From Candidatus Kapaibacterium sp. (lineage in GTDB: Bacteria > Bacteroidota > Ignavibacteria > Kapaibacteriales > UBA4661): a DNA stretch of 64,000 bases. Position 1 is the first letter of the stretch. Each line of letters starts with the position of its first letter. The stretch is taken from positions 4,037 through 68,036 of the forward strand of contig DAIUAL010000001.1 of NCBI GenBank assembly GCA_036847245.1, in the 5' to 3' direction. The translations under genes and the position numbers were made by a program. The notes under the pieces were generated by a model. That model was not told the origin of the DNA, searched no databases, and saw only the letters and a program-made list of their open reading frames with translations. Positions 21,411 through 60,325 of the stretch are shown here, one piece after another.

Positions 21411-21815
21411 TTAAAAACAATTTTTATGGTGGCGAATGATAGTGTTGCCATGGTGCGATTCAATAGCAACGACATCAAAACGGCAGGGTGTATCGTTGAT
21501 ATTGTGAAAGGCAAGATAGCTTTCTGCCATGCGTCGAATCGTACGTTGTTTGGAGGGCGTAACTGCTTCTTCAGGAGTGCCATAGCGTGTACTTCGACGA
21601 AGTTTTACTTCGACAAACACAAGAGTATCTCCGTCACGTGCAATGATATCGATTTCTCCCATTTTGCCGACGCGGTAGTTAAGCGTAACAATGGTGATGC
21701 CTTGTTCAATGAGATGGTTTATGGCAAGTGCTTCGCCTTGTGTACCAATCTTACGATTGTTTGCATGAGTTTTTTGTGGTACTGTAGATGATGAAGTATT
21801 CGTGCTCTTGTTCAT
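21411..21815 (-). CDS. YraN/UPF0102-family predicted endonuclease
   Basis: GEALAINHLIEQGITIVTLNYRVGKMGEIDIIARDGDTLVFVEVKLRRS…RFDVVAIE is the YraN family core. Preferred over the overlapping plus-strand ORF 21312..21791, which has no recognisable content. Confidence 0.6.
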   Translation of the reverse strand: MNKSTNTSSSTVPQKTHANNRKIGTQGEALAINHLIEQGITIVTLNYRVGKMGEIDIIARDGDTLVFVEVKLRRSTRYGTPEEAVTPSKQRTIRRMAESYLAFHNINDTPCRFDVVAIESHHGNTIIRHHKNCF

Positions 21816-21831
21816 TGTATGATAAATAGAT

Positions 21832-24800
21832 TTATGCGGCGATGTTTTTCGCTCGTGCTTTGCGAATGCCATCTTCGACAGCTGTACGAGGAATAGCAAC
21901 ATCGAACCCTGTTCGTACCACTGTATTTGTGGTATCCAAGCGTGTTAGCACCTGACGGAAAGTTTGCTCTGCTTCTTCCCACCGACCAAGATAGAGTAGC
22001 GCATAAGCACGTAAATGCCGAGCATAGTTTTGTTCAGGAACAAATGTCAATGATAAATCTGCAAAGTGGAGTGATTCCTCATACTTGCGTTGATTGCCTA
22101 CAAGATTTGCTAAAGAAGCCGCTGCATTTGCTGCTAAGTGCTTCGGAAGATTACCGATCTGTAAAGCAAAGAGCAGTGCTTGTTCAGCTTGATCGAAGAC
22201 ATGCATGAAATTCAGCGTTAAGCCGAGTTGAAGCCATGCGTAGGCATTCTCCGGTTCTTCTTTAACATGCTGAAGCAAGAGTCGATAATTACGATCCATT
22301 TTTTGTTTCATGATGGTCATGTCTTGATCATAACCAAGATGTTCGATCATAATATCTGAATCAGCAATACCACCCCCCGCCTCAAGAATACTGGTGCTGA
22401 TTTGCTCATGGACACGTCCTATGAATTTGACCTTAGGATAGCCATAGTTACGAAAGAGACGCGGGTATGCACCAACATGATGTTCAGTATCCATGTCATT
22501 TTGGCGATGTTTACTTTTGATCATACATAAGAATGCTCCAATCTTCTCATCCGCCTCTTCAACAATAGTACGAAGACCTGCTCCTTGCTCCGGTATCAAC
22601 CGCTCATCGGCATCGAGATAGAGTATCCACTTACCGGTACAGTGTTCGAGCGAGTTATTACGCGCCGATGCAAAATCATTCGTCCATGCACGATGATAAA
22701 TTTTTGCGCCAAACTCTTGAGCAATAGTAAGAGTGCGGTCAGTCGAACCTGTATCAGTGATAATGATTTCATCAACAATCCCACGCACGCTCTCTAAACA
22801 GCCCGGTAGAAAATGTTCTTCATTTTTCACAATCATGCTGAGTGAAATTAATGGAGGTTGCGCATGTTCTGATATACTTGACTGAGGAGTCAAACGAATA
22901 GAAAAAGCCGATGCAAAAGTATGAAGATGTGTACGGAATGTTGCCAGTTCTTGTGTAGCAGACTGTGCGGGCAAAAGACGGACTAAGGTTTGCACGATAT
23001 GTTGTGCTTGTGGAATACGTTCGTGCCAAATCGTCGGGCGGTGTGCATCTAGTGCTTGCATATAATTCATGAGCAGTACTAAGCGTTCGCCTGCTGCCGC
23101 GTAGTGCCCCAGCATATACGAGGCAAGAACATCATACCATAATGCTTCGCGTTGATTCGGGAAATATGCTAAAGATTGTCGAGCAACATGCAGCAAGCGT
23201 GTGTAATCAGTTTGTGCAAGTAGGTGTCGGGCATAAATATTTAAGACGACTGCACATTTTTGTGGTGTTGCTTTGGGGTGTGTCAGCAGTTTGCTGAGAG
23301 CATTCAGCATCTCATCATTCGAGAGATTTTCTCCAAAGGTGAGTATATGCAGAACATATTGAAAAGCACCTTCATCATTTGTTGCGCCTTGGCGCATCAA
23401 TTCAGCTTCGAGGAGGGCTGTGTAACGACGAAATTTTTCACCGGTCGGCAATGTTGAATAGTGATAAAAAACGATAGAAGGATCGAAGAGTATTTTTAAG
23501 CCCAAGCGCGTAATGCTTGCTGTTACTTGCTCGTGGATAATGCCTTCATACTGAATAGCGGGGTGTCGGCGAAAAAGACGAAGAATTTCTGTCTGTGCAT
23601 GAGCATCCGACTCTTTGCTGGTAGGTGTGTGACGAATCGAAGAAATATATCCACCAATGTCGGTAGGAGCATTGCTAATGAGTGAACGAATGTGTGTGCC
23701 AATTTCCGTATTGAACCATTCATCGGAGTCAAGCATTAATACCCATGAACCGGAACAGTGTTGCAGAGCATGATTACGAGCTTGGCTATAATCATTTCGC
23801 CAAATCGTATGGACAATCTGTATGGGGGGGATATGTCCGGATTGTTCATGATGACCTTGTTCGCGAAGAGTACGGACAACATTGAGTAATTGAGCATCAT
23901 CGTGCGAAGTACGATTGACAGCATTATGACTGATAATAATTTCATCGCAGCACGAAGCAAGTGAAGATAAAGCACGCAGAAGATATGGCGTATTGCTTTC
24001 TGTAAGAGAGCCGACAATGATTGCGCCGGAGAGTAATATTGTGCGAGAAGAATTGTCATGGTCCTGTGCTGATCCTTGAGTAGTGAATGCCTGTAATGCT
24101 TGTTCAGCTTGAGCAAGAAACTGCGGTAGATCAGTACGTTGCGGTTGAAGGTGAATTGCTTGCTTAAGTAGTGCTACAGCATCGGCAGGTCGTTGGAGCC
24201 GTAAAGCAATATTAGCTTCACCAACAATGCAAGCAATATCATTGGGAGCATGTTTACGACCTTCGTGAAAACAGAGAAGTGCACGATGCCATTCTTGCAA
24301 GCCTGTATAACATTGTCCCATCTTAAAATAAACTTGTTCAGGAACAACATGGTACTCACTCTCGAATCCTGAGGTCGGTTCAGCTAATGTTCGATGTAAG
24401 TCTTCAAAGATTGACAGTGCTGAACGAAAATCAGATTCAGCCAAGAGAACATCGCCCGCGATCAATGATGCTAGTGTCTGTCGTGGCTTTCTGCGTAAAG
24501 ATTCACGAGCAATACGCAAACTCAAATCGAGTTGTTTGGTTTGATACAATGCTAACGCATAAAAATTGAGTGCTTCGATGACTAAATGTTCAGCGAGCTT
24601 TGGCGTAGATATATGGTGCATATGATCGGTTGCCGGTAGATGCATCGCACGCAAGATATTGTCAAGAGCCATGTGGAAATCGTCAAGTGCTTCTGTATGG
24701 CGACCAAGTGCAAGCAGTGTTTTTGCTCGTTGAAAAAGAGCATAGCGGTTATCAGGTGTTGTCTGGAGTGTCGTATTGAGCATAGCGAGATTACGCTCTT

Positions 24801-25368
24801 GTTTCTCACGCATAGCAGTTGGAGAAAGATTATATCCCAAATGCGTGAAGACAATAGTCGAAGGTTGGATGAGGAGACCTGCTTGTTGAATGGCATCGGT
24901 AATTTGTTCATGAATGATACCCTGCCAACGGATGCGATCATCACGCCGAAAGATTCGTGTTGCTTGCGCAGTAAAAACATCACTGCCACCATTAGTCCGA
25001 GCAGAGTGTGAGCGCAAATGAACAAGTATGCCACCAACTTCTTGCGGAGCAGTACGCAAGATATCAGCACATGTTGAGGCATTTTCAAGTCGTTCGTCTG
25101 CGTCAATACTGAGTATCCATGGTGCTTGTGCGAATTCGAGACAAACATTGCGTGCTTGAGCAAAATCATTCTGCCATGTAGACTGGATGACGTGACAACC
25201 AAGCGATTCAGCTAATGGTTGTGTGCCATCAGTTGATCCCGTATCAACAACAATGAATTCAACGGGAAATGCTTCAGCAAGTGGTCGTACTGAAGCGATA
25301 CAATCCGCAAGCATGTAAACTTCATTTTTAGTAATCAGACAGACAGAGAGAAAAGGAGTCGAATTCAT
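21832..25368 (-). CDS. giant tripartite glycosyltransferase: three tandem [GT2-like domain - conserved linker - TPR] modules in one 1178-aa polypeptide
   Basis: GT2 blocks appear three times. Module 1: VCLITKNE…VVDTGSTDGT…WQNDFAQARN…WILSIDADERL. Module 2 (degenerate): …IIISHNAVN…WRNDYSQARN…WVLMLDSDEWF. Module 3: IVKNEE…ITDTGSTDRT…WTNDFASARN…WILYLDADERL. Each is followed by an I.x.G.IHEQ linker and TPR-like helical repeats. Start set at ATG 25368. Confidence 0.8.
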   Translation of the reverse strand: MNSTPFLSVCLITKNEVYMLADCIASVRPLAEAFPVEFIVVDTGSTDGTQPLAESLGCHVIQSTWQNDFAQARNVCLEFAQAPWILSIDADERLENASTCADILRTAPQEVGGILVHLRSHSARTNGGSDVFTAQATRIFRRDDRIRWQGIIHEQITDAIQQAGLLIQPSTIVFTHLGYNLSPTAMREKQERNLAMLNTTLQTTPDNRYALFQRAKTLLALGRHTEALDDFHMALDNILRAMHLPATDHMHHISTPKLAEHLVIEALNFYALALYQTKQLDLSLRIARESLRRKPRQTLASLIAGDVLLAESDFRSALSIFEDLHRTLAEPTSGFESEYHVVPEQVYFKMGQCYTGLQEWHRALLCFHEGRKHAPNDIACIVGEANIALRLQRPADAVALLKQAIHLQPQRTDLPQFLAQAEQALQAFTTQGSAQDHDNSSRTILLSGAIIVGSLTESNTPYLLRALSSLASCCDEIIISHNAVNRTSHDDAQLLNVVRTLREQGHHEQSGHIPPIQIVHTIWRNDYSQARNHALQHCSGSWVLMLDSDEWFNTEIGTHIRSLISNAPTDIGGYISSIRHTPTSKESDAHAQTEILRLFRRHPAIQYEGIIHEQVTASITRLGLKILFDPSIVFYHYSTLPTGEKFRRYTALLEAELMRQGATNDEGAFQYVLHILTFGENLSNDEMLNALSKLLTHPKATPQKCAVVLNIYARHLLAQTDYTRLLHVARQSLAYFPNQREALWYDVLASYMLGHYAAAGERLVLLMNYMQALDAHRPTIWHERIPQAQHIVQTLVRLLPAQSATQELATFRTHLHTFASAFSIRLTPQSSISEHAQPPLISLSMIVKNEEHFLPGCLESVRGIVDEIIITDTGSTDRTLTIAQEFGAKIYHRAWTNDFASARNNSLEHCTGKWILYLDADERLIPEQGAGLRTIVEEADEKIGAFLCMIKSKHRQNDMDTEHHVGAYPRLFRNYGYPKVKFIGRVHEQISTSILEAGGGIADSDIMIEHLGYDQDMTIMKQKMDRNYRLLLQHVKEEPENAYAWLQLGLTLNFMHVFDQAEQALLFALQIGNLPKHLAANAAASLANLVGNQRKYEESLHFADLSLTFVPEQNYARHLRAYALLYLGRWEEAEQTFRQVLTRLDTTNTVVRTGFDVAIPRTAVEDGIRKARAKNIAA

Positions 25369-25469
25369 AAGAGAACAACAGCTACACAAAAAGAATACGA
25401 TTCAGAAGAATGCTGATAGACACAGGGCATGTGTTTATGTACAGACTTTACAAGTTAGGTTGTTGGTTG

Positions 25470-27785
25470 CTAGTGCATACCAATAGGGGTAAGAAAAAAT
25501 GTCTGCATGACGCCTTTGCCTTTAACCTCAATAGGTTGACGGGATTCGACTACAATATCTAAAGGCATACCAATTTGCTCAATAAGTGTACAACGGTATG
25601 TATTTGGTGCAATTTCTTCCACACCCGGTGAATTGAGTAGTACTTGCATGAAACGCTCGGATACATGGATGCGTCCTTCTGCACCGTGAGATTCCATACG
25701 CGACGCGGTATTCACCGAATCACCCCATAAATCGTAAGCAAATTTATGCTTACCAATAACGCCTGCCACACAAGGACCACAGTGTATTCCGATGCGAAGA
25801 TTGACATTGGTAGCAGTGATTTCCCGAATGGTATTCAACGAACGCAGCATGCTGGCGGCAAAAAATGTTATCCGCACGGCATGAGCATCTGTAACCTCGG
25901 GAATACCACCGGCAATCATGTAGCAATCTCCAATTGTTTTGATTTTTTCTAATTGATACAGCAGCGAGGCATCATCAAATTCGCTGAACATCCAATTAAG
26001 AAGTTGCACAAGTTCGCTGGCAGAAGTACGTGCAGAAAGCTTCGTAAATCCAACCATATCTGCAAAGAGTACTGATACATTGTCATAGCTGTCGGCAATG
26101 AGTTCACTTCCTAATTTAAAACGCTGACCAATTGAACGTGGGAGAATGTTGCTCAAGAGTTTTTCGGATTGTTCTTTCTGTTCTTCAATTAAATGTTTCT
26201 GCTCTAAAATTTCTGCATTCTGAAGTTGAATTTCTGAGTTCTGTGCTTGTGTCTCTTCGAGAAGATCAGCGATGCGTTGTTGCGCTTGTGCTGACGCAAG
26301 TACAGAAGCAATATTATCAGCGAGGGCTCCAAAAAGATCAAGATCTTGTTGAGTAAATGACTCCATTGAGCCAAACTCTGCAACGGCTAAACAAGTATCT
26401 TGAAAGATGAATGGTACAGCACAATAGTGCTGTGCTTGCAGTGTGCCAAGGGCACTGGCAACACCGTGATGAGCTAATGATTGTAAAGTATAGTTTTCTG
26501 TTTGCGGTGATGTTGCAGAAACAGATTGATGATGCCGGACAGGTTCGGTAATGCGACTGTTTTGTATGTCAGCTTGGATGATAGAACGATGCTCGTAGCT
26601 ACTCCCGATAATGCCTTCACCAGTACAAAATGTCTGGCGAATAGAACTTGGGTCAGGACAACTATATGTTGCATTAAGTTCAAGATATACTTGATTGTTG
26701 ACAGTACGAACTTTTCGCAGATACAATGATGCCGTGATGCTGCTTGTTAGCTCAGCAAGCATACGGAGGATATCGGTTGTAAGTGTGTCAAGATGGTTAG
26801 CATTACGTGCGAGTGAGGCAATACGATAGCGAAGATCGTCATAATACTTCTGCGTTTCGATTGCTTCCATTGAAGTATTCATAAGTGCAGCAAGTGTAGC
26901 AAGTTCATCATTTTTCTTTTTGATAAACTGTAGCTTCTTCTTGCGCTCTGACGACGATGATTGAAATGCTTGTGTAATGGTGCGAAAGGAGAAACGTATT
27001 CTACGGAGAATAACAATGGTCGAAGCGATAAGAAATGTCAATAGAATAGTCGTGCCAACCACCGCGGTAATATTTTTTATACGATCAAGTTCTTGCTCGT
27101 GGAGCATGACTGTATCTGCACCACGATGAACCAGAGCATGAAGTTCACTACTTCGTAGAGACAACTCTCGGCAATACTCAGAGAGTCGCTGTGCTTCAAG
27201 CCTATATTCCGCTTCCCCAAGCAACTCATCTTCATCAAGGATCTTTCTGAGGGTGAATTGGATATCATTTCTGATAATGATTATAGACTTCGCAACCGCT
27301 ATTTCATGAGGTTCCGTTAAGGCAAAGAATGTTTTTTGCCATATAGTCTCAGACTCATTCATTCCCTGCTCAATTTGCATGCGTAGTTGTTTAATACCAC
27401 TTTGAAAGGAATCTTGAGTACTGCTACTAGAAGGGGTATCAGAAGACTTCTTATATTCGATCAGTAGGTTAGGTAGGGCAGTTGTATACCACATCTGTAG
27501 GCGGTAGAGACCATTCATGGACTGAATGCGATGCATGTACATATCCTGCATGGAGGCCATGGTCTGCTTTTTTAAGTAAAGAACTGTACCGCCCAATATT
27601 CCTACAAAAACGGCACAAATAATCATAAGCCGGGTAATCTGCTGAGCAATCCATGATTGCTGTTTGGCGGAGCGCGAGGCACCTTGTGCAGATTGGGGAG
27701 TGGGTATAGTAGATGATTGAGCAGTAATCTTCTTTTTCAATGACAGATGAAGATCTTGCCAAGAATCTCGATAGGAATTACTCAT
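25470..27785 (-). CDS. membrane-anchored class III adenylate/guanylate cyclase with GAF domain
   Basis: Two TM segments, coiled coil and a GAF-like region (…TGEGIIGSS…). C-terminal CYC domain (…VLFADMVGFTKLS…IKTIGDCYMIAGG…RIGIHCGPCVAGVIG…WGDSVNTASRME). Confidence 0.85.
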   Translation of the reverse strand: MSNSYRDSWQDLHLSLKKKITAQSSTIPTPQSAQGASRSAKQQSWIAQQITRLMIICAVFVGILGGTVLYLKKQTMASMQDMYMHRIQSMNGLYRLQMWYTTALPNLLIEYKKSSDTPSSSSTQDSFQSGIKQLRMQIEQGMNESETIWQKTFFALTEPHEIAVAKSIIIIRNDIQFTLRKILDEDELLGEAEYRLEAQRLSEYCRELSLRSSELHALVHRGADTVMLHEQELDRIKNITAVVGTTILLTFLIASTIVILRRIRFSFRTITQAFQSSSSERKKKLQFIKKKNDELATLAALMNTSMEAIETQKYYDDLRYRIASLARNANHLDTLTTDILRMLAELTSSITASLYLRKVRTVNNQVYLELNATYSCPDPSSIRQTFCTGEGIIGSSYEHRSIIQADIQNSRITEPVRHHQSVSATSPQTENYTLQSLAHHGVASALGTLQAQHYCAVPFIFQDTCLAVAEFGSMESFTQQDLDLFGALADNIASVLASAQAQQRIADLLEETQAQNSEIQLQNAEILEQKHLIEEQKEQSEKLLSNILPRSIGQRFKLGSELIADSYDNVSVLFADMVGFTKLSARTSASELVQLLNWMFSEFDDASLLYQLEKIKTIGDCYMIAGGIPEVTDAHAVRITFFAASMLRSLNTIREITATNVNLRIGIHCGPCVAGVIGKHKFAYDLWGDSVNTASRMESHGAEGRIHVSERFMQVLLNSPGVEEIAPNTYRCTLIEQIGMPLDIVVESRQPIEVKGKGVMQTFFLTPIGMH

Positions 27786-29710
27786 AACATTGCCCCGGAA
27801 GTGAGTGACGCTGTTATGGTACTATCTGCATGTTGTAGTGAATGGGTGGCATGATCTGACTGTTCAGATTGCCTCATGCTGAGTTGAGAGGAGTCCAAGA
27901 TATGGTTGTGTCGATAAGTTAATAGTGCCAGTGCGATACTTTCACCGATAATTGATGCTAATGTTTGTTGCTGATGATTTATGGAATGAAGACAAGCGCA
28001 TTCAATAACGGCAAGAACTTCTTTTTTATAGAGGCAGGGAATTGCCATCATGTAGTGTGGTGCTGTACGCCCAGCCGCCGATACGACAAAAGTAGGGCTG
28101 CCAGATAATGATGAAGTACTATTCTCAGCATTATCGGGAGTCGATTCTCCCAAGGACATAATGACAATTGTACCATTCCGCACAGATTGTCCGCAAATAC
28201 CTTCACCTGTGCGAAAACGTACAAGTGGGTGTTGGTGAGAAACAGCAAACCCTCCTATAAACTCAAACAGATCTTTATGTGCAACTTGGTCGTATGGATG
28301 GGTAGAAGAGGCAACAAAATGATTCTGATTGTTGTGAGCAATATCACAGCGAGTGTACAGACATACAACAGAAGAGTCAAGATATTTGGCAATAAAGCTC
28401 GAAATATTGAGAGATAGTTCGTGCAGAGAGGTACTTTCCTGAATAATACGGGCAGCAGAAGACTGACCTTCCTTCAGCCATAACACTTGTTGTTCTGCAA
28501 TACGCAATGTTTCAATTTCATTACGTTGCTGTTCCATCGCACGAATAGTTTTTGCTTGCTTGCGCGCATTTCGAACCAAGTAAAAAAAACTCAGAGCAAC
28601 AAAAACAGCAATGATGACAATAATTGATCGAGTTAAAACTTCTTGTCGTTGACTAGAGAGAGCGAGCTTGTCAGCAGATGCTTTGTGCTCCCACTCATTC
28701 TCAAGATGAGTAGCTTCTGTTTCAAACTGAATTTTACGATGAGTGATCGTTATAATGAGCCGAGAGTAGTAATTGCTGTATTTATAAGCGGAGTCATATT
28801 GTTTGAGCGATGCATAAATATTTCGCAAAAGTTCTACGGCACTTTCTTCATCCGGCTCGTTTGAAAGTTTTTTTGCACGCGCCAATGCTTGTTGAGCCAA
28901 TGAAATTGCGTCTTTTGCTTTGCCTAATGCAAAGAGAATTTCCGCCTTTTCTTGGTATGCATTGTTTTTTTCATACGTTGATCGATTAGTTTCTGCCAAA
29001 TAAATGGCAGAATCAATCATAAGTGTAGCCGGTTTTAACTGCCCCATGGTTTTGTAAAATCGTGCCAAATAAACATACGCCGTGGTGATATTGGCAGTAT
29101 CTTTAATCGAGTGATGTGATCGCAAGAATAAGCAACGTTGATAGTTAATGTTTGCCTGAGTATAATTATCCAATTCTTTATACAAGTCACCGAGGCGTAA
29201 TGCCGCATATGCCATGCCGATGGTATCGTTTTGTTCGGTGAACATTTGCTGACTTTCCGACATATAGGAGAGAGCTTCACCGAATTTTTTTTTATACACT
29301 AGCATTTCACCGATATTCAGCTTGCAATAGGCGAACTCGCGCGGGGTCTGCGCACTTATTCCTAACGATTCAATTTTTTTGAAAACATCCAAACCACGAT
29401 CATAGTCCTTGATATTGCGAAAAATGATGCCGATATAGTTTGCCGGCTCAATGAATCGTTGGGGTAGTCGAAAATTTGTAGCTAACTCCATCGCTTCTCT
29501 GCCATAGCGAACTGCGGCATTAATGTCATTCTTACGATAGAGCCATGCTAAACGCGTCAGTGGAGCAATACGAGAAGTATCATTGTAGGTAAGCAAGAGA
29601 GACTTTAAACTATCCGCTTCAGAGATTTGTGCACGAAGACGACAAGAAGAGAATAGGAGACCAATGCCAAGCAGAAGACCTATGCCAATATATTTGGTGA
29701 TTCTACACAT
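27782..29710 (-). CDS. TPR-repeat / TM / GAF sensor protein without output domain
   Basis: Signal/anchor (MCRITKYIGIGLLLGIGLLFSSC), extracytoplasmic TPR repeats, a TM helix (IIVIIAVFVALSFFYLV), then coiled coil plus GAF-like (…TGEGICGQS…). Stop overlaps the cyclase start codon (ATGA, 27782..27785). Alternative start at 29764. Confidence 0.7.
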   Translation of the reverse strand: MCRITKYIGIGLLLGIGLLFSSCRLRAQISEADSLKSLLLTYNDTSRIAPLTRLAWLYRKNDINAAVRYGREAMELATNFRLPQRFIEPANYIGIIFRNIKDYDRGLDVFKKIESLGISAQTPREFAYCKLNIGEMLVYKKKFGEALSYMSESQQMFTEQNDTIGMAYAALRLGDLYKELDNYTQANINYQRCLFLRSHHSIKDTANITTAYVYLARFYKTMGQLKPATLMIDSAIYLAETNRSTYEKNNAYQEKAEILFALGKAKDAISLAQQALARAKKLSNEPDEESAVELLRNIYASLKQYDSAYKYSNYYSRLIITITHRKIQFETEATHLENEWEHKASADKLALSSQRQEVLTRSIIVIIAVFVALSFFYLVRNARKQAKTIRAMEQQRNEIETLRIAEQQVLWLKEGQSSAARIIQESTSLHELSLNISSFIAKYLDSSVVCLYTRCDIAHNNQNHFVASSTHPYDQVAHKDLFEFIGGFAVSHQHPLVRFRTGEGICGQSVRNGTIVIMSLGESTPDNAENSTSSLSGSPTFVVSAAGRTAPHYMMAIPCLYKKEVLAVIECACLHSINHQQQTLASIIGESIALALLTYRHNHILDSSQLSMRQSEQSDHATHSLQHADSTITASLTSGAML

Positions 29711-29997
29711 ACATGGTAGGAGAAAATAAAGATGAGTCTCTGAGCAAGAGTTTCTGATATACAATATGCTTGATGTGTACGATGATTCTATAATCTAAGT
29801 AACCGTAAGCATTTGCTTCTCATTTTAAAAATTGGCAGAACGTAATCGCCAACTGAAATTTAAGTAAATTGGATTGTGTTCTTTGCAAAAAAGTAGAGAC
29901 AAAATCGAGGAAACACACAATATTCCTTGCTTTCTTTTATGCAAAGTAGCAGAACACGATATTTCTATTTTTTCTTTTCATTTTTTAGAGATACACT

Positions 29998-30174
29998 ATG
30001 TTTGGTTTAGGAACACCCGAATTACTTATTATCGGTCTCGCCCTTGTCTTGATGTTTGGTGCGCGAAAAATTCCTGAATTAATGCGTGGTTTAGGTTCGG
30101 GGATTAAAGAATTCAAGAAAGCATCTTCGGTCGAAGATGATGATGCTTCCAATAAACCCGCAATGAAATCATAA
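29998..30174 (+). CDS. tatA: twin-arginine translocase subunit TatA (58 aa; not in ORF track, <60 aa)
   Basis: [42 protein letters not shown]: canonical TatA TM plus amphipathic helix. Confidence 0.8.
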
Positions 30175-30280
30175 ATAACCCTATGCTTCGCGTGTGACAA
30201 ACAGTCATGATCTTGCACGAATAAGGCTTGATTGGAGCATGTCTGCGATGTTCTCTTGATTTTCATTATCATCAACATAT

Positions 30281-30715
30281 ATGTTTGATATTGGTGGTGG
30301 TGAATTGCTCCTGATTGTTCTGGCAATTCTCCTTCTTTTTGGTCCAAAAAAAATACCTGAGCTTGCACAAATGTTTGGAAAAGGTTTGGCACAATTTCGT
30401 AAAGCTCAAACCGAATTTCAACGCAATCTTAATGCTGTAAGTGATGAAATTCAGCAAGAAGCAGTCGCTGTCCAACAGCACATTGAGTATGTACCACCAA
30501 GCGGTGCTGTACCAACTGTTCATGATACAATGGTCGCACACGCAGAAAGTATAGAAAGCACGACGCACTCTTCGATAAATATATCGAATCATGATAAGCG
30601 TGCCGAGACAACGCACAATGTTGAGAATAATACACCGGAAAGTAGTCCACTCAACGAAGTTCCAGTTCAACCTATCGTTATTCGACCGGCTTCTACTTCG
30701 GTTGCGCGTTCGTAG
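30281..30715 (+). CDS. TatA/TatB-family protein (longer, TatB-like)
   Basis: MFDIGGGELLLIVLAILLLFGPKKIPELAQMFGKGLAQFRKAQTEF… has the Tat hinge/amphipathic signature with an extended acidic, P-rich C-terminus. Confidence 0.65.
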   Translation: MFDIGGGELLLIVLAILLLFGPKKIPELAQMFGKGLAQFRKAQTEFQRNLNAVSDEIQQEAVAVQQHIEYVPPSGAVPTVHDTMVAHAESIESTTHSSINISNHDKRAETTHNVENNTPESSPLNEVPVQPIVIRPASTSVARS

Positions 30716-53507: not shown

Positions 53508-55832
53508 TTGTTGAGTACGTTGAAGGAAATGGCTATGTCTTTGTCTTTGCGCTCGGTTATTTCAAACATTACCCGGCAGGGAATTCAGGCAGATGCTACG
53601 GAAGCCGATATCCGTAGGCATCAGGCAGGCATATTGATAATACTAATGGCAATGATACTGATTGCTACAGATATAATCACATTACATTTTCTACATGTCA
53701 ACACCACATTGTCAATCAAGGTAACAAATGTTTGTGCCTATGTTGTTGCTCTATTTCTATATCGACGAGGTCATACATTCATTGGTGCCTATATTGCTAT
53801 TGGTATAGCTAACTTAGCAATCTATGTCGCATCCATTGAGGACGGAAAAAATTCACTGACAGTCGTGTGCTTTCTAACGACAACTATTTCACCGTTTATA
53901 TTCTTTTCGTTACGCCAGTGGCGGTGGATTGCCTTTTCAGTGTTTTGGTCATGGTTTTTCGCGGTCTTAACCCTCGTATACAACTATCAGTTACCACCCG
54001 CACTTGCTTGGTTAGGCATTATTACCAGTACAAAACCAACGGATGTAGTATCAATTGTCACTCTGAGTATAACTATTTTTTTTGTTGCTGGGACAACTCT
54101 TTTTCTTGTATTCCTCAACGATCATTCCGAACAAGTTGCATGGCAACAAGTACATGCCGCCAAAAATAATGAAAGACGTCTTACGTCTGTGTTGTCTTCC
54201 GTAACAGATCCGATATGGATTACCGATATCAATCTAAAAGTTGTTATGGCAAATGCTGCATTTCATACAGTGTATAAGGCACGTTATGGAAGAGAATATG
54301 ACAAGGAAAGTATCGATGAAATTCCCAATTTACCCGAAGAAGAAGTACTGTGGAAACCACGGTATGCCGATGCTATCAAAGGTAAGACGGAAGAGTTTTA
54401 CAATTCCTTTGTCGGTGTTGATGGACAACGAGTTTGGGAAGCGGTAACTTTGACACCACTGAAATTAAATGATTCTATTTCCGGTGTTGTAGGAATTGCA
54501 CGAAACATTACAGCAGTAAAAGAAGCAGATGCAAGTATTTCTGCTACAGCGATGCAATTGCAAGCATTGGTTGCATCTCTTGATGACATTGTTTGCCAAG
54601 TTAATCGTACAGGATTTGTTCTTGCCGTTTGGGCATCGCATCATTCGCCATTGTCAGAGTTTGCAAAGAGTTTACAAGGTAAACATATTCGCCTTCTTGC
54701 TGACGATGCAGGTGCAGCAATGATGAATGCAATTAATAATACGTTTATCACACAGCGTCCGCATTCTATTGAGTATTATCTCCAACGAGTTCGTCGTTGG
54801 TATCAAGCCAAACTTTCGTACGTTACAGAGAATAACTCTGTAACAATTCTTCTGGCGGATGTTTCAGATCGCAAAGCTAATGACGAGCACATTCAAGGAT
54901 TAAATAATCAATTGCAAGAACTGAATGCTTTATACTCAGAAGCAAATCGAAATCTTGCAGACAATAATGCACAGCTCGAACAGCGCGTCAGTGAGCGTAC
55001 TGCTGAATTGCAACGTATGACCGAACAATTACAAGAGGAAAATGGTATCCGTAAGCATACCGAAGAAAGGTTGTCACGCGCTCTTCAACGCGAACAGAGC
55101 TTTAGTGACATGAAGTCACGGTTTGTCACGATGTTGTCTCACCAATTCCGCACACCACTGACTTTGGTTCAAAATGGGCTCGATATTATTACTTCCTTAC
55201 TGATCCGAAATACGAGTATTTCTCATGAACAGGTTGCTAAACATCTCTCATCGATGATGGGGGCTACTGACCAGATTGTTGAGCTACTGGAGCGTGTAGC
55301 AACTTTATCGGATATGCAGATCAATCTTCTCGAAGAAAAGCCACACCAATTTGTACTTGAGCCACTTTTACGCACTATTATACATGAGTGCGCTATGCAG
55401 GATGAAAACAATGTTGTTAAGCCATTGGAGCGTATTCAAGTAAGGTTGCAGGGAGACATTCCTTCCCTGTATACAATTGAAACAGCACTACACAGAGCCT
55501 TGATGGAAGTAGTGAAGAATGCGTTGCACTACAGCGACGAGAATTCGCCTATTGTAATTTCAGCTGAAGTCGACAGAATACATTCTCATCGTGTACATAT
55601 TACCGTTACCAATCAAGGCAAACAGCTATCCGAAGAAGAATATCGGATGATTTTTGAAAACTTTTACCGCACAGGTCTTGCACAAACCGTTGGGAGTCAG
55701 CGTGGTTTAGGAATTGGTTTAGGAATTGCGCAGTTTTGCATGCAAACACTTAATGGCATTATCGTGTGTACGAATTCTGAATCAAATTTGACTCATTTTC
55801 ATTTGGAATTTCCTGCTGTTCTTCCGCAATAA
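53508..55832 (+). CDS. sensor histidine kinase, multi-TM N-domain + 2 PAS + coiled coil + HisKA/HATPase (paralog 1 of 3)
   Basis: About 6-7 N-terminal TM helices. PAS-like (…DPIWITDINLKVVMANAAF…, …LDDIVCQVNRTGFV…). S-helix ERTAELQRMTEQLQEEN. H-box MLSHQFRTPL. N/G boxes (…NALHYS…, GLGIGLGIA). Confidence 0.8.
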   Translation: MLSTLKEMAMSLSLRSVISNITRQGIQADATEADIRRHQAGILIILMAMILIATDIITLHFLHVNTTLSIKVTNVCAYVVALFLYRRGHTFIGAYIAIGIANLAIYVASIEDGKNSLTVVCFLTTTISPFIFFSLRQWRWIAFSVFWSWFFAVLTLVYNYQLPPALAWLGIITSTKPTDVVSIVTLSITIFFVAGTTLFLVFLNDHSEQVAWQQVHAAKNNERRLTSVLSSVTDPIWITDINLKVVMANAAFHTVYKARYGREYDKESIDEIPNLPEEEVLWKPRYADAIKGKTEEFYNSFVGVDGQRVWEAVTLTPLKLNDSISGVVGIARNITAVKEADASISATAMQLQALVASLDDIVCQVNRTGFVLAVWASHHSPLSEFAKSLQGKHIRLLADDAGAAMMNAINNTFITQRPHSIEYYLQRVRRWYQAKLSYVTENNSVTILLADVSDRKANDEHIQGLNNQLQELNALYSEANRNLADNNAQLEQRVSERTAELQRMTEQLQEENGIRKHTEERLSRALQREQSFSDMKSRFVTMLSHQFRTPLTLVQNGLDIITSLLIRNTSISHEQVAKHLSSMMGATDQIVELLERVATLSDMQINLLEEKPHQFVLEPLLRTIIHECAMQDENNVVKPLERIQVRLQGDIPSLYTIETALHRALMEVVKNALHYSDENSPIVISAEVDRIHSHRVHITVTNQGKQLSEEEYRMIFENFYRTGLAQTVGSQRGLGIGLGIAQFCMQTLNGIIVCTNSESNLTHFHLEFPAVLPQ

Positions 55833-55899
55833 GAGCAACCACAAATAAGAATACCCGCTGCTAAGTAGTATATTTTCTTCTCTCTTTTTAATCGTTGTC

Positions 55900-58203
55900 A
55901 TGTCGGTGCTTGCAGAGTTTATCCTCTCGCTTACTCAAGCTGGAATGAGTGATGATATCACGACGCATGATCAAAAGCGTTTTCGTGTGATGAATATTGC
56001 TTTCCTTATTGGGATTGCGATATGTCTCATCTTAACACTCTTCTATGTATTGCATGGTGCTCATAGTTATGTGTGGACATCGATTGCTTCGACAAGTTTA
56101 TTGATTATGTGCTTTGTCCTTCGCATTATTGGATACACAAATGGAGGAAACTTTTTTGCATTATTGATCATGAACATTGTGATTTTTATGGCGGAATATA
56201 GTTTCCCTGTAGGATCTGATATACATCTCCTTTATCTGCTCCCGCTTGCAACACTGTTTCTTGCTTATGAGCCAACGGAGTGGCGGTATATTAGTTTTTT
56301 TACAATTTTTCCTCTTATCCTACATACCATAGTCTTGATTACAGAGTATGTACCACCCGTGTTAATGGCAGGCATTATTGTTGAGGAAAAAAGCATACCG
56401 CCTCATGTTATGGCTTATTTAAGTTTTGTTATTGCCGTCTTAGGTGTCATTGCTTTTGTGATTGTCTATGCTAATGAAAATTATCGAACCGAGAAGATTC
56501 TAGAGCGTCAAGTATCAACCATCCGTGAGCAAGAGCAGAAGTTATCCAGCATTTTGAATGCAATTCCTGACCCTATTTGGCTGATTGATACTAACTACAC
56601 TGTCTATGTGGGTAATGAAGCAATGGCGCGACATAATGAAAACCGAACGGGATATCGTTTGGCAATTGGTGCTGTCGTTTCTAATTCAATTTATACACCG
56701 GAAGAGCTTCGCATGTGGCAGGCAAAGTACTCATCAGCATTTGCCGGCAATTATGAAAGCTTTGAATATACAAGTGTTTATTCCGATGGCCGACGATGGT
56801 TTGCTATCACAGTTGCACCGGTGGTGATTGCCAATCGTATTACCGGCGCGGTTGGTATTCTCCGTGATATCACAGCAATAAAACGTACTCAGCAAGGTAT
56901 CATTCGCAGTGAGGCAAATTTAAAAGCGGTAATATCATCGTTGGATGATATCATCTTTCAAATCAATAAAGAGCATCAAATCGAGAATGTATGGACATCC
57001 GATCATTATGCGTTTTCTAATGTTGGCGAATTGATTGGTAAATCAGTAGCACCGTTCTTCTATCAAGCCAGCCAGCAAGTTTCTAGTGCGATAGATATGG
57101 TGTTTGCAACTCACAAGCCTCAAAGTGTTGAATTTTATATCGAGCAAATGCGTCGATGGTATCGTGCAAAAATTTTGTACGTCATGATTAGTGGTAAAGA
57201 GACAGTTACTGTGCTCCTTGCAGATGTTTCTAGTCGCAAACAATATGAACAAGAGATTCTTAACTTGAATGGAAGACTGACACAGCTCAATGAAAATCTT
57301 GAAGAACGTGTTGCGGAGCGTACACAAGAACTAAAAAGCCTTGCATCAGAACTTCAAAATGAAGTCAGAATTCGCACCCATGCAGAAGAACGCTTATCGG
57401 TTGCCTTGGAACGTGAACACCTTTTCAGCGAGATGAAAACACGTCTTGTTACGTTGCTGTCACACCAATTTCGTACGCCGCTCACATATATTCAATCTGG
57501 TGCTGACATTATTGAACATTCGATGCGCACGGGGCGTACTCTTCTTCCTGAGCAAATCAATAAGTACTTAGAAGGTGTCTATGTTGGTACAGAGCAAATT
57601 GTTAATCTTATTGACAATGTGTCGCGGTTGATGGACGTGCAGACTGCTATTCTGCAAGACGACGCTGAAGACTTTAATCTGACAGACCTTGTTCAAAATA
57701 TTGTTAAAGAGTTTAACTACAGCGATGATTTGCATGGATTGGAGGCAATTGAGCGAGTACGTATTTCGGCACCTGCTCTGTTGAATGTTCATACTGTACA
57801 ATTGGCTATTCGTGCCGCTGTACAAGAATTACTCAAAAATGCACTTACGTATTCATTACCTAAAACGCCGATTTCTATTGATATTGTATCGCAAAAAGAT
57901 GATAGTCTTACGAATGATGAAGATGAGATAACAAGCATATCACCGCAGATTGAGATACGTATTACCAATATGGGGTATGGTATTGCTCCAAATGAAATTG
58001 AGTCTGTTTTTGAGTACTTTTATCGTTCGGGTGAACATGATGCTGTGGGGAAAAGTCGTGGTTTGGGCATCGGACTTGGTTTAGTCAAATTCTGTGCTGA
58101 GGCAGTGCGTGGAAGTGTAAGATTGGACACGGATTTAACAGAAAAAGACATAACCAAAGAGACAACATTTACATTTATTTTCCCCCAGAATGCTACTTTG
58201 TGA
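55900..58203 (+). CDS. sensor histidine kinase, multi-TM + PAS + HisKA/HATPase (paralog 2 of 3)
   Basis: Collinear with paralog 1: …DPIWLIDTNYTVYVGNEAM…, LDDIIFQINKEHQI…, ERTQELKSLASELQNE, LLSHQFRTPL, GLGIGLGLV. Confidence 0.8.
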   Translation: MSVLAEFILSLTQAGMSDDITTHDQKRFRVMNIAFLIGIAICLILTLFYVLHGAHSYVWTSIASTSLLIMCFVLRIIGYTNGGNFFALLIMNIVIFMAEYSFPVGSDIHLLYLLPLATLFLAYEPTEWRYISFFTIFPLILHTIVLITEYVPPVLMAGIIVEEKSIPPHVMAYLSFVIAVLGVIAFVIVYANENYRTEKILERQVSTIREQEQKLSSILNAIPDPIWLIDTNYTVYVGNEAMARHNENRTGYRLAIGAVVSNSIYTPEELRMWQAKYSSAFAGNYESFEYTSVYSDGRRWFAITVAPVVIANRITGAVGILRDITAIKRTQQGIIRSEANLKAVISSLDDIIFQINKEHQIENVWTSDHYAFSNVGELIGKSVAPFFYQASQQVSSAIDMVFATHKPQSVEFYIEQMRRWYRAKILYVMISGKETVTVLLADVSSRKQYEQEILNLNGRLTQLNENLEERVAERTQELKSLASELQNEVRIRTHAEERLSVALEREHLFSEMKTRLVTLLSHQFRTPLTYIQSGADIIEHSMRTGRTLLPEQINKYLEGVYVGTEQIVNLIDNVSRLMDVQTAILQDDAEDFNLTDLVQNIVKEFNYSDDLHGLEAIERVRISAPALLNVHTVQLAIRAAVQELLKNALTYSLPKTPISIDIVSQKDDSLTNDEDEITSISPQIEIRITNMGYGIAPNEIESVFEYFYRSGEHDAVGKSRGLGIGLGLVKFCAEAVRGSVRLDTDLTEKDITKETTFTFIFPQNATL

Positions 58204-58312
58204 TAGAAGAACTTATTATTGAAAGCCTTCCATAGTCAATACAATCATATCTATGATGAGTGGGTAGGTGTCTCAGTTGAGATCCTACTCTCGATTGTGT
58301 TGATACATTTAT

Positions 58313-60325
58313 ATGATTTCATTGATCTCCACTGCCGTGCAGAGAACACTTTTTACATATCTCCAAAAGCTCTTTCCTGACCGTGGTAATGCCACTACTG
58401 CATATAAAGTTGGTAGTACCGTTTTTGATCTATCCGCTCATCATGAATCTGCTCGGCATATCGCGGCAATGGTACTTCTTTTGCCTACAATGCTGTGCTA
58501 TTTATTTACGGTAGTTTTTTATGCTTTAGGACTACCGCGAAGTGGTATGGGCTTTTTTATTGTTGCAATCGGATTTACTTGTTGTACATGGTTTGGGCAC
58601 TATAATCAGCAACGAGCTACCGAAGCTGTTCTCGTGTGGGCAGTAATAGCGGTATTTCTTATGTCGCATATTATTCCGCAAGGTGAGCTTACATATCCTT
58701 ATTATTTCATGATACAATTAGGAGCATTGTTTGTTTATGGTATTCGGCGTTTAAAGGGAGTGATAATTTTTGCATTGCTGCCCATAGTTCTACATACGAT
58801 AGCAATGTTCTACACACTACCGGCATATGGAGCTTATTTCGTGGAGGAAGCACATATACCAATGAATTTTTTGACCTTATCACGTTTTCTCATTGTTACT
58901 TGTGTGCTGTGTTTGGTGATACTTCTTCAGCAAAAAAGTACATTAGAAATAGAAGCAATTGTTGACAAAAGTATTGAAGCAACTCGTATTCATCAGCAAC
59001 AGTTAAACGATATTGTTACTGCTATTCAGGAAGCGATATGGCTTACAGATGCAACGGGCAATATTATTTTAAGCAATCCTTCACTGCAGCAATCGTTGGT
59101 AAATCGTTTTCATATCATGTTTGGTAATCGTTTTGATATGATCGAATATTTTGAGCCGCATGAAAGAGAGCTTTGGCGTGAGCAGTACCAAAAAGTATTT
59201 CGAGGTGAAACAACCTCTTTCACTACCGAATGGCAAGACAAAGTACATAATAGAATGCATTGGTGGGAAATTACGCTTCTACCATTATCTGATCGTGGTT
59301 TGATCTATGGTGCCGTGGGTGTTGGGCGTGAGATAACTGAACAAAAAGAATTTGCCGAGAGGATTCTTGCACTGAATCAAGAGTTGTCGGTTATGACACA
59401 CCGGCTTTCTTCAGCAAATGAAAATCTTGAATCACGTATCGTCGAGCGCACAGCCGATCTCGCTCAACTCGCGAAAGAATTACAACAAGAGAATGTCGAG
59501 CATCGTAAGACAAAAAAAAGTTTGGCTTCGTCTTTAGAGCGCGAAAAACGCTATGGGGATATGAGAATGAAATTAGCTATGATGCTATCGCACCAATTTC
59601 GTACGCCGATGGCCTATATTAAGTCGGCAAGCGATCTCATGGAAGCCTATCTTCGACGTGGTAAAGAGATTGATGAAGCACGCTTGCGAAATTTATTGAA
59701 TTCTATCGATCGCGGTACATCAGAAATGGAAAAACTGATGAATGATATTTCTAATCTTTTAGAAACACAAGCAGAGTTACAGCAAGAACAACCACAACAG
59801 TTCAATCTTGTTTCTGTTGTACGAGAAGCATTACAGCTCCAGATTAGCCCGGGAGACTATCAAGATCCCTTGATTGGACATTCGTTGTTGGTAGATGTTG
59901 ATGAAGATTTGATCGCCTTTACACGGCTTCATGCTTTGCGTACAGCGCTCTTTGAAATTATTCGTAATGCTGTGCAATATTCAGAGAAAGGTTCAACGAT
60001 TAGTATTACTTCTTCATCTGTAAATTCACTCGAAACCAATGAAAAGATATATTCGATAGCCATTCACAATACGGGAAGTCAAATACCAATTGGCGAAGAG
60101 CATAATATCTTTGAGTTTTTCTATCGTGCGGGTCGTGAACATGAGGTCGGAGCATCCCGAAGTTTGGGTATAGGGCTTGGGCTTGCAAAGTATGCAGTGG
60201 AATTATTAGGCGGCTCGGTTATCTGTGTGCGTGGTCTGCTCAACGAAGCAAAGTTTACTATAACATTTCCACAAAAATTGCCGACCAATCTATATGATGT
60301 ACCATCTGTACACATAACAATGTGA
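58313..60325 (+). CDS. sensor histidine kinase, multi-TM + PAS + HisKA/HATPase (paralog 3 of 3)
   Basis: Collinear with paralogs 1-2: …EAIWLTDATGNIILSN…, ERTADLAQLAKELQQEN, MLSHQFRTPM, GIGLGLAKY. Confidence 0.8.
   Translation: MISLISTAVQRTLFTYLQKLFPDRGNATTAYKVGSTVFDLSAHHESARHIAAMVLLLPTMLCYLFTVVFYALGLPRSGMGFFIVAIGFTCCTWFGHYNQQRATEAVLVWAVIAVFLMSHIIPQGELTYPYYFMIQLGALFVYGIRRLKGVIIFALLPIVLHTIAMFYTLPAYGAYFVEEAHIPMNFLTLSRFLIVTCVLCLVILLQQKSTLEIEAIVDKSIEATRIHQQQLNDIVTAIQEAIWLTDATGNIILSNPSLQQSLVNRFHIMFGNRFDMIEYFEPHERELWREQYQKVFRGETTSFTTEWQDKVHNRMHWWEITLLPLSDRGLIYGAVGVGREITEQKEFAERILALNQELSVMTHRLSSANENLESRIVERTADLAQLAKELQQENVEHRKTKKSLASSLEREKRYGDMRMKLAMMLSHQFRTPMAYIKSASDLMEAYLRRGKEIDEARLRNLLNSIDRGTSEMEKLMNDISNLLETQAELQQEQPQQFNLVSVVREALQLQISPGDYQDPLIGHSLLVDVDEDLIAFTRLHALRTALFEIIRNAVQYSEKGSTISITSSSVNSLETNEKIYSIAIHNTGSQIPIGEEHNIFEFFYRAGREHEVGASRSLGIGLGLAKYAVELLGGSVICVRGLLNEAKFTITFPQKLPTNLYDVPSVHITM

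Follow-up and report, generated by a model that had tools for sequence, protein, structure and literature searches.

The window, a 64,000-nucleotide (nt) stretch of the Candidatus Kapaibacterium sp. contig DAIUAL010000001.1 (assembly GCA_036847245.1, positions 4,037 to 68,036), contained four co-directional open reading frames (ORFs) on the minus strand between positions 21411 and 29764. In order of transcription these encode a membrane protein with TPR repeats and a putative GAF domain (hereafter the co-sensor), a predicted receptor-type adenylyl cyclase, a triplicated GT2–TPR protein and YraN. The NCBI gene calls for an identical sequence (GCA_002405405.1, DHLT01000051.1) gave proteins of 642, 771, 1178, and 134 amino acids (aa) and agreed with the ORFs, so the packed arrangement of four minus-strand genes given in a preliminary description of this DNA stands. 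The first two genes probably form a unit, and their features are as follows:

27782..29710, minus strand: co-sensor gene, 642 aa from the ATG at 29710 (the mechanical ORF, from the TTG at 29764, has 660 aa)
28730..29632, minus strand: extracytoplasmic TPR module of the co-sensor, aa ~45–345 of the 660-aa ORF (Pfam, AlphaFold2, and alignment to the fusion protein P0003)
28574..28639, minus strand: single transmembrane (TM) helix of the co-sensor, aa ~376–397 (Kyte–Doolittle peak 2.51)
27920..28489, minus strand: cytoplasmic GAF domain of the co-sensor, aa ~426–615 (by homology; below the Pfam cut-off)
27782..27785, minus strand: ATGA stop/start overlap of the co-sensor and cyclase genes (read from the sequence; recurs in the loci of a relative)
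25470..27785, minus strand: gene for a predicted class IIIa adenylyl cyclase of receptor type, 771 aa
26295..26855, minus strand: GAF domain of the cyclase, aa ~311–497 (PF01590; same GAF subfamily as that of the co-sensor, by sequence)
25488..26096, minus strand: catalytic domain of the cyclase, aa 564–766 (PF00211)

From the N-terminus, the co-sensor comprised a signal or anchor, ~8 pairs of TPR-like helices, a stalk formed by a long helix, a single TM helix, a cytoplasmic coiled coil, the GAF domain, and finally a short tail of low complexity. TPR_12 (47.9 bits) and TPR_MalT (45.1 bits) both scored above threshold in the Pfam scan, which found no catalytic output domain and no kinase domain in this protein. 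The hydropathy profile was hydrophobic at the N-terminus and contained a single strong TM segment, followed by a K/R-rich stretch (LVRNARKQAKTIR). By the positive-inside rule, this stretch past the TM helix would place the TPR domain outside the cell and the C-terminal domain inside. In an AlphaFold2 model built from a 2-sequence alignment, the TPR part had a predicted local distance difference test (pLDDT) score of 75–90, and one long helix ran through the membrane.

The C-terminal domain of the co-sensor matched the GAF domains of the cyclase and of L001, a locus from a relative, with an hhalign probability of 98% (E 2.8e-13, 27% identity). BLAST gave an E of 2e-4 against the cyclase GAF and 2e-9 against a 625-aa 4HB_MCP–GAF protein of L001, which itself scored 60.7 bits for 4HB_MCP_1 and 43.2 bits for GAF_2. 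By homology the C-terminal domain is a GAF domain, and on these alignments the GAF domains of the two proteins are paralogs of the same GAF subfamily. Pfam, hydropathy, and GAF homology agree with the earlier picture of a sensor that lacks its own output and consists of an extracytoplasmic TPR domain, one TM helix, and a cytoplasmic GAF domain.

The cyclase began with a TM helix, a ~170-aa extracytoplasmic helical domain, and a second TM helix, followed by a HAMP-like linker, the GAF domain, a signalling helix, and the catalytic domain. The hydropathy profile placed the TM helices at aa 53–71 and 242–263, on either side of the ~170-aa domain; with two TM helices and an ectodomain, the cyclase is a receptor in its own right. 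The protein had been labeled a GAF–cyclase, which captured the GAF and catalytic domains but overlooked the two TM helices and the ectodomain. A 4HB_MCP identity for the ectodomain was rejected, as its E of 0.16 was not significant. The GAF domain matched PF01590 over residues 332–495 with 23.8 bits (cut-off 22.4), and the catalytic domain matched PF00211 (Guanylate_cyc) over residues 564–766 with 188.3 bits (cut-off 21.9).

Residue-by-residue alignment to the C1 and C2 domains of adenylyl cyclase 5 (AC5) located all six catalytic residues in the one cyclase chain. The metal-binding Asp residues (FADMVGF and IGDCYM) aligned with AC5 C1, the transition-state Asn and Arg (VNTASRME) aligned with AC5 C2, and the substrate-binding Lys (KIKTIG) and Asp (YDLWG) aligned with EKIKTIG and YDIWG of AC5 C2. 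The closest solved structures were AC5, AC8, AC9, and the mycobacterial Cya, with PDB matches from E 1e-68 to 1e-44. A Lys/Asp pair confers ATP specificity, while guanylyl cyclases carry a Glu/Cys pair. By these established residue rules, the protein is predicted to be a class IIIa adenylyl cyclase that works as a homodimer. A guanylyl cyclase reading (the top word-indexed match was the ANP receptor) was ruled out by the Lys/Asp residues. The full catalytic residue set and the PF00211 score fit the output role given to this gene. The word-indexed homolog search with the cyclase was dominated by generic cyclase domains and was uninformative for full-length relatives. Between two assemblies of the source organism, the cyclase differed by two residues (P0010 on a 22-kb contig and P0289 on a 72.7-kb contig; L002).

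The co-sensor had very few full-length relatives. Besides the co-sensor itself, the word-indexed search returned a sole homolog, P0002, with 46% identity conserved over the full length. When 1.84 billion protein representatives were searched exhaustively with HMMER, P0001 and P0002 were the only full-length matches, and ~26,000 other proteins matched only profile positions ~25–420, which correspond to the signal–TPR–stalk–TM module. In L001 the gene of the co-sensor ortholog (46% identity) overlapped by 4 nt (11860/11863) with a downstream gene whose product was homologous to the N-terminal part of the cyclase. A longer JGI/NCBI contig of the same protein cluster (JGI 3300059473) encoded a full 750-aa Guanylate_cyc protein after the sensor, again with a 4-nt overlap (3788/3791). 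Thus the sensor-to-cyclase order and the 4-nt overlap were kept in both of the two organisms that had the sensor. The ATGA overlap reported for the window was confirmed in its sequence, where the 3′ end of the co-sensor gene (...GGG GCA ATG TTA TGA) overlaps the start of the cyclase gene (ATG AGT AAT). A scan of GTDB genomes with the sensor alignment gave pattern matches but no relative (the source genome is outside that collection), and two scans of JGI metagenomes, one with the cyclase N-terminus and one with the sensor GAF, found no further instance of the pair.

A third membrane receptor without an output was encoded in the relative, 11 nt upstream of the sensor (L001, 8112-9989; JGI 3300059473 contig, 112-1917). 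This protein of 601–625 aa contained a 4HB_MCP domain, a weak HAMP match, a GAF domain, and a C-terminal region of ~170 aa that was PAS-like in appearance. No counterpart of the 4HB_MCP–HAMP–GAF receptor was found in the window.

Elsewhere, the TPR–stalk–TM module was nearly always joined to an enzyme. A catalytic output was present in cis in 64 of the 65 best relatives of the module; HATPase_c (histidine kinase) was found in 29, SpoIIE (PP2C phosphatase) in 21, and Guanylate_cyc in 14. Among the 148 best TPR-module matches, 15 had a cyclase domain that shared 35–53% identity with that of the window cyclase. One of the proteins found, P0003, is a natural TPR–TM–cyclase fusion. Its TPR module aligned end to end with that of the co-sensor (27% identity over 335 aa for the TPR half, E 3e-29), and its cyclase half was 44% identical to the window cyclase (E 2e-61). 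The best relative of the TPR module was a kinase and not a cyclase, so the argument from fusions is supportive rather than exclusive. The contig that encodes P0003 (JGI contig Ga0394881_0011391; L088) also encoded TPR–GAF–cyclase chains of 841 aa and 789 aa, and the catalytic domains of the L088 cyclases were 37–44% identical to that of the window cyclase. In total, positions 1057-10347 of L088 held four tandem class III cyclases, with TPR, TPR–GAF, TPR–GAF, and MASE2 as their sensor modules. Simple fission of a TPR–GAF–cyclase gene was rejected as an origin of the pair, since the downstream gene begins with its own TM–ectodomain–TM segment and not with the catalytic domain.

We consider it reasonably likely that the two genes form a unit in which an output-less co-sensor acts in trans on a receptor adenylyl cyclase. 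Both proteins would be made together and would form a complex in the membrane, for which the related GAF domains and the juxtamembrane helices are the most plausible contacts. The cyclase would make cyclic AMP (cAMP) as a homodimer, and binding of a periplasmic ligand to the TPR domain would modulate cAMP synthesis alongside the input of the cyclase ectodomain. By analogy with FimS-type sensors, the TPR ligand may be peptide- or protein-like. Among the window ORFs scanned there was no cAMP receptor gene, and no downstream target can be named. The split two-protein cyclic nucleotide signaling unit of the preliminary description is therefore retained as far as the conserved order and overlap, the output-less sensor, and the single-chain fusions support it, while the coupling itself is what we infer from them.

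Several observations weigh against this reading. Profile searches of the domain calls succeeded for Guanylate_cyc, the cyclase GAF, TPR, GT2, and UPF0102, but the co-sensor GAF did not reach the Pfam gathering score (GAF_2, 19.8 bits against a cut-off of 28.6, E 9.5e-4) and is backed by hhalign and BLAST instead. The AlphaFold2 model of the same region was unreliable (pLDDT 25–55), with an order of strands and helices compatible with a GAF domain but too poor for use in a fold search. Only two independent instances of the pair were found, both in organisms known from metagenomes alone, which makes for thin conservation statistics. With a sensor module of its own, the cyclase in principle needs no partner. 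Tandem signaling genes often occur without interaction, as with three kinases at 53.5–60.3 kb of the window and the four cyclases of L088. Finally, no terminator-like site was found between the cyclase and GT2 genes, so all four genes may be co-transcribed locally.

Tandem clustering of signaling genes in this lineage, the completeness of the cyclase as a receptor, and the count of two instances would all fit a pair of independent neighbors. These would be two separate adjacent receptors, with the GAF-only protein either signaling to a partner elsewhere or representing a decaying receptor that has lost its catalytic domain. Decay is at odds with the identity between the co-sensor and its ortholog, which was 46% over the whole protein and 49% over the TM–GAF part; the GAF half was as conserved as the TPR half, so the co-sensor does not appear to be a decaying fragment, and the sequences point to purifying selection on both halves. 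Separate receptors are also hard to reconcile with gene order and a 4-nt overlap retained at 46% protein identity, with the specific relatedness of the co-sensor GAF to the cyclase GAF, and with the catalytic output that 64 of 65 relatives need. Overall, we regard independent neighbors as unlikely.

A trans-acting co-sensor could also restrain the cyclase or report on its product. Class III catalytic domains are active only as dimers, and a partner with a related GAF domain and helix and without a catalytic domain might heterodimerize with cyclase monomers and block the catalytic dimer. The GAF domains of some cyclases, such as CyaB1 and CyaB2, bind cAMP, so the co-sensor GAF might instead bind cAMP and signal from inside out to the periplasmic TPR domain. 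The sequence does not discriminate between activation and a dominant-negative block of dimerization. Across the family, however, the TPR–stalk–TM segment sits N-terminal to the outputs, as an input module does, and we hold a dominant-negative or feedback partner to be improbable.

The co-sensor as an input module in trans also raises a broader model. The extra 4HB_MCP–HAMP–GAF receptor of the relative gives a hint that several sensors may converge on the same cyclase. In this lineage, output-less receptors of one GAF subfamily might dock on a single GAF-bearing cyclase as interchangeable trans-acting sensor modules, the TPR–TM–GAF protein here and additionally the 4HB_MCP–HAMP–GAF protein in the relative. 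Hetero-oligomeric contacts between GAF domains and helices would then allow a single cyclase to combine several inputs from the periplasm. We put this model forward tentatively, as rather unlikely; to our knowledge, no case of interchangeable trans sensors on a bacterial class III cyclase has been described.

The two genes that follow the pair were proposed to belong with it in a four-gene module. Their features are as follows:

25369..25469, minus strand: spacer between the cyclase and GT2 genes, 101 nt, measured to the GT2 ATG at 25368
21832..25368, minus strand: triplicated GT2–TPR gene, 1178 aa, start ATG 25368 (neighbor, outside the unit)
24034–25368, minus strand: GT2 unit 1, with DTGSTD and DADE motifs
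22864–24033, minus strand: GT2 unit 2, with DSDE, and NRTSHD in place of DTGSTD
21835–22863, minus strand: GT2 unit 3, with DTGSTD and DADE motifs
21411..21815, minus strand: yraN (UPF0102), 134 aa (neighbor, outside the unit)

The 80-nt gap first reported upstream of the GT2 gene fits only a 1185-aa ORF from a TTG, and the gap of 17 nt reported before yraN measured 16 nt from the GT2 stop. The triplication itself was borne out by significant unit-to-unit alignments. PF00535 (Glycos_transf_2) matched the giant protein in three stretches (167.6 bits), each unit with a DxD motif, and TPRs were present besides. Units 1 and 3 were 36% identical (E 5e-43), and unit 2 matched both with an E of about 1e-23. 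The DTGSTD nucleotide-binding motif was lost in unit 2 of all five known triples (NRTSHD here; consensus HTG), and this unit may be non-catalytic or altered in specificity. The hydropathy profile of the giant protein showed no TM segment.

The best solved matches of GT2 unit 3 were GmaR (1.4e-30), SunS (3e-21), and ThuS (1.4e-19). The SunS-family model TIGR04195 scored 176.3 bits over the three units and did not reach the equivalog cut-off of 350. The giant protein appears to be a cytoplasmic glycosyltransferase of the protein or peptide type, typical of Ignavibacteria and Kapabacteria. GmaR, the flagellin O-GlcNAc transferase of Listeria, and the peptide S-glycosyltransferases SunS and ThuS also have a GT2 domain followed by TPRs (PMC9638930). 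The window protein differs from these in having three GT2–TPR units in one chain and no antirepressor domain. Homologs of the GT2–TPR protein numbered >250, nearly all from Ignavibacteria, Kapabacteria, and Melioribacter-type metagenome-assembled genomes. Most were double-unit proteins of ~760 aa, and five clusters were triples; the triple form is uncommon and not unique. YraN matched PF02021 with 100.9 bits (cut-off 23.6) and NF009154 with 123.9 bits (equivalog cut-off 109), is a member of a widespread housekeeping family, and differed by one residue between the two assemblies of the source organism.

An operon in which the triple GT2–TPR gene and yraN are under the control of the pair, or expressed along with it, as one functional module would account for the shared direction and the short gaps (an overlap, 101 nt, and 16 nt). 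The gaps held no terminator-like site, and the 101-nt spacer held neither a terminator-like nor a sigma-70-like site in a scan that excludes Bacteroidota-type promoters; counts were at the shuffle expectation, and the scan was uninformative. One double GT2–TPR homolog had a hybrid histidine kinase gene 28 nt upstream. Against these points stands the context of the homologs. Eighty GT2–TPR loci from GTDB species representatives were taken with 10-kb flanks, for a total of 85 other loci (L003–L087). In tblastn searches with the sensor, the cyclase, and YraN, none of the 85 loci had a match within the ~10-kb flanks. The closest triple GT2 homolog (L003, 64% identity), that of the nearest relative, had a divergent proB upstream and no yraN; the triple GT2 gene of the relative lay on a contig other than that of the pair, which came from the same sample and had a similar G+C content. 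The second pair locus, on the JGI contig, contained no GT2 gene and no yraN, and led into a convergent pyrF, a UDP-GlcNAc 2-epimerase-family gene, surE, a CBS-domain enzyme gene, cysS, and kdp. YraN, as a housekeeping protein, speaks for no special tie to the pair.

On this synteny comparison, which had been named as the test of the four-gene module, the module was not upheld, and a single functional module with the GT2–TPR gene and yraN is very improbable. These two genes are lineage-specific neighbors of the pair and not members of the unit. The proposed tie between the cyclase pair and the glycosyltransferase was absent from the 85 homologous loci and the second pair locus alike and should not be propagated; tight co-directional packing alone gave rise to a false module.

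The GT2–TPR family had a context of its own in some genomes. A triple with 42% identity and a double shared an S21 – GT2 – GT2–TPR arrangement, with GT9 and GT4 genes upstream and ABC and HtrA genes downstream. In L004 (GCA_002483085.1; L005 is a second copy of the contig) and L007 (GCA_028284775.1), the context was conserved from ~6 kb upstream of the GT2–TPR gene, in the order GT9 heptosyltransferase-like gene, GT2 gene, small ORF, ribosomal protein S21 gene, gene for a 333–337-aa GT2 protein, and GT2–TPR gene. The conserved GT9/GT2/S21 context in L004 and L007 suggests an envelope-glycan setting for the family.

The genomic surroundings are those of an ordinary chromosome. One flank of the four-gene stretch contained parA/parB, a Trk-like K+ channel gene, an MFS transporter gene, and an NlpC/P60 gene; the other contained two tatA-like genes, a gatA-type amidase gene, a NIF3 gene, and a Reg_prop histidine kinase gene. 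The two tandem TatA/E-like genes lay directly upstream of the co-sensor gene on the minus strand (~29985-30160 and 30272-30670). The first encodes a 58-aa TatA_B_E protein. The product of the second begins with the same MF.IGG.ELL motif, has a ~90-aa C-terminal extension, and had no Pfam match at E 1e-4. Three tandem co-directional histidine kinase genes occupied 53508-60325 on the plus strand and encode proteins of 774, 767, and 670 aa. All three had HisKA and HATPase_c domains, the third also had PAS_4, and the first two had large N-terminal regions without a Pfam family at E 1e-5. A 727-aa ORF on the minus strand at 61759-63942 likewise had no Pfam family at E 1e-5. The tRNA and Rfam scans of the window returned no tRNA and no family.

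Every domain of the pair, and the one-chain TPR–(GAF)–cyclase architecture, is of an already known kind. In bacteria, the usual class III cyclase is a one-component receptor whose single chain holds both sensor and enzyme. The unusual part of this locus is the pairing of an output-less TPR–TM–GAF protein with a cyclase already equipped with a sensor. A literature search on TPR, GAF, and adenylate cyclase in Bacteroidetes found no paper describing such a pair. If this conserved and presumably translationally coupled partner, with its standard sensor module and no output, does act through the neighboring cyclase, sensory input would enter in trans through paired GAF domains, and the pair would be a small, testable two-protein system. 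The value of the find is limited by its occurrence in two metagenome-derived organisms and by an interaction that we infer.

FimS of Porphyromonas gingivalis, from the FimS–FimR system, has a periplasmic sensor domain of multiple TPRs between two TM segments, with an unknown ligand (PMC11053733). In the co-sensor, too, the TPR domain is periplasmic, with a hydrophobic segment on its N-terminal side and a TM helix on the other, and the NCBIfam FimS model NF053520 matched co-sensor residues 145–417 (E 4.7e-9). The score of 35 bits was far below the cut-off of 600, so the co-sensor is not a FimS ortholog. FimS has a histidine kinase output (HisKA, HATPase_c), whereas the co-sensor has none. In RetS–GacS, one sensor modulates another by hetero-oligomerization. 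The likeness to the present pair is conceptual only, in that a receptor would work through the output of its partner; RetS and GacS are histidine kinases and share no homology with it.

The window cyclase resembled the cyanobacterial CyaB1 and CyaB2 in having a GAF domain N-terminal to the catalytic domain, and had the same full set of metal, substrate, and transition-state residues as the mycobacterial Rv1625c/Cya and the mammalian AC5, AC8, and AC9. It differed from the class IIIa membrane cyclases in having two TM helices and an ectodomain rather than six TM helices, and from GAF-regulated and class IIIa cyclases in its single GAF domain with an additional GAF partner encoded in trans. The closest comparison was with the single-chain TPR–TM–(GAF)–class III cyclases of Bacteroidota-like origin (P0003 and the 841-aa and 789-aa proteins of Ga0394881_0011391). 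These share the signal–TPR–stalk–TM module and a class IIIa catalytic domain, and some have a GAF domain between the TM helix and the cyclase, although of another subfamily (no BLAST match to the GAF domains here). In the window, by contrast, the cyclase is a polypeptide separate from the TPR–TM–GAF protein, and the cyclase chain adds a second sensor module.

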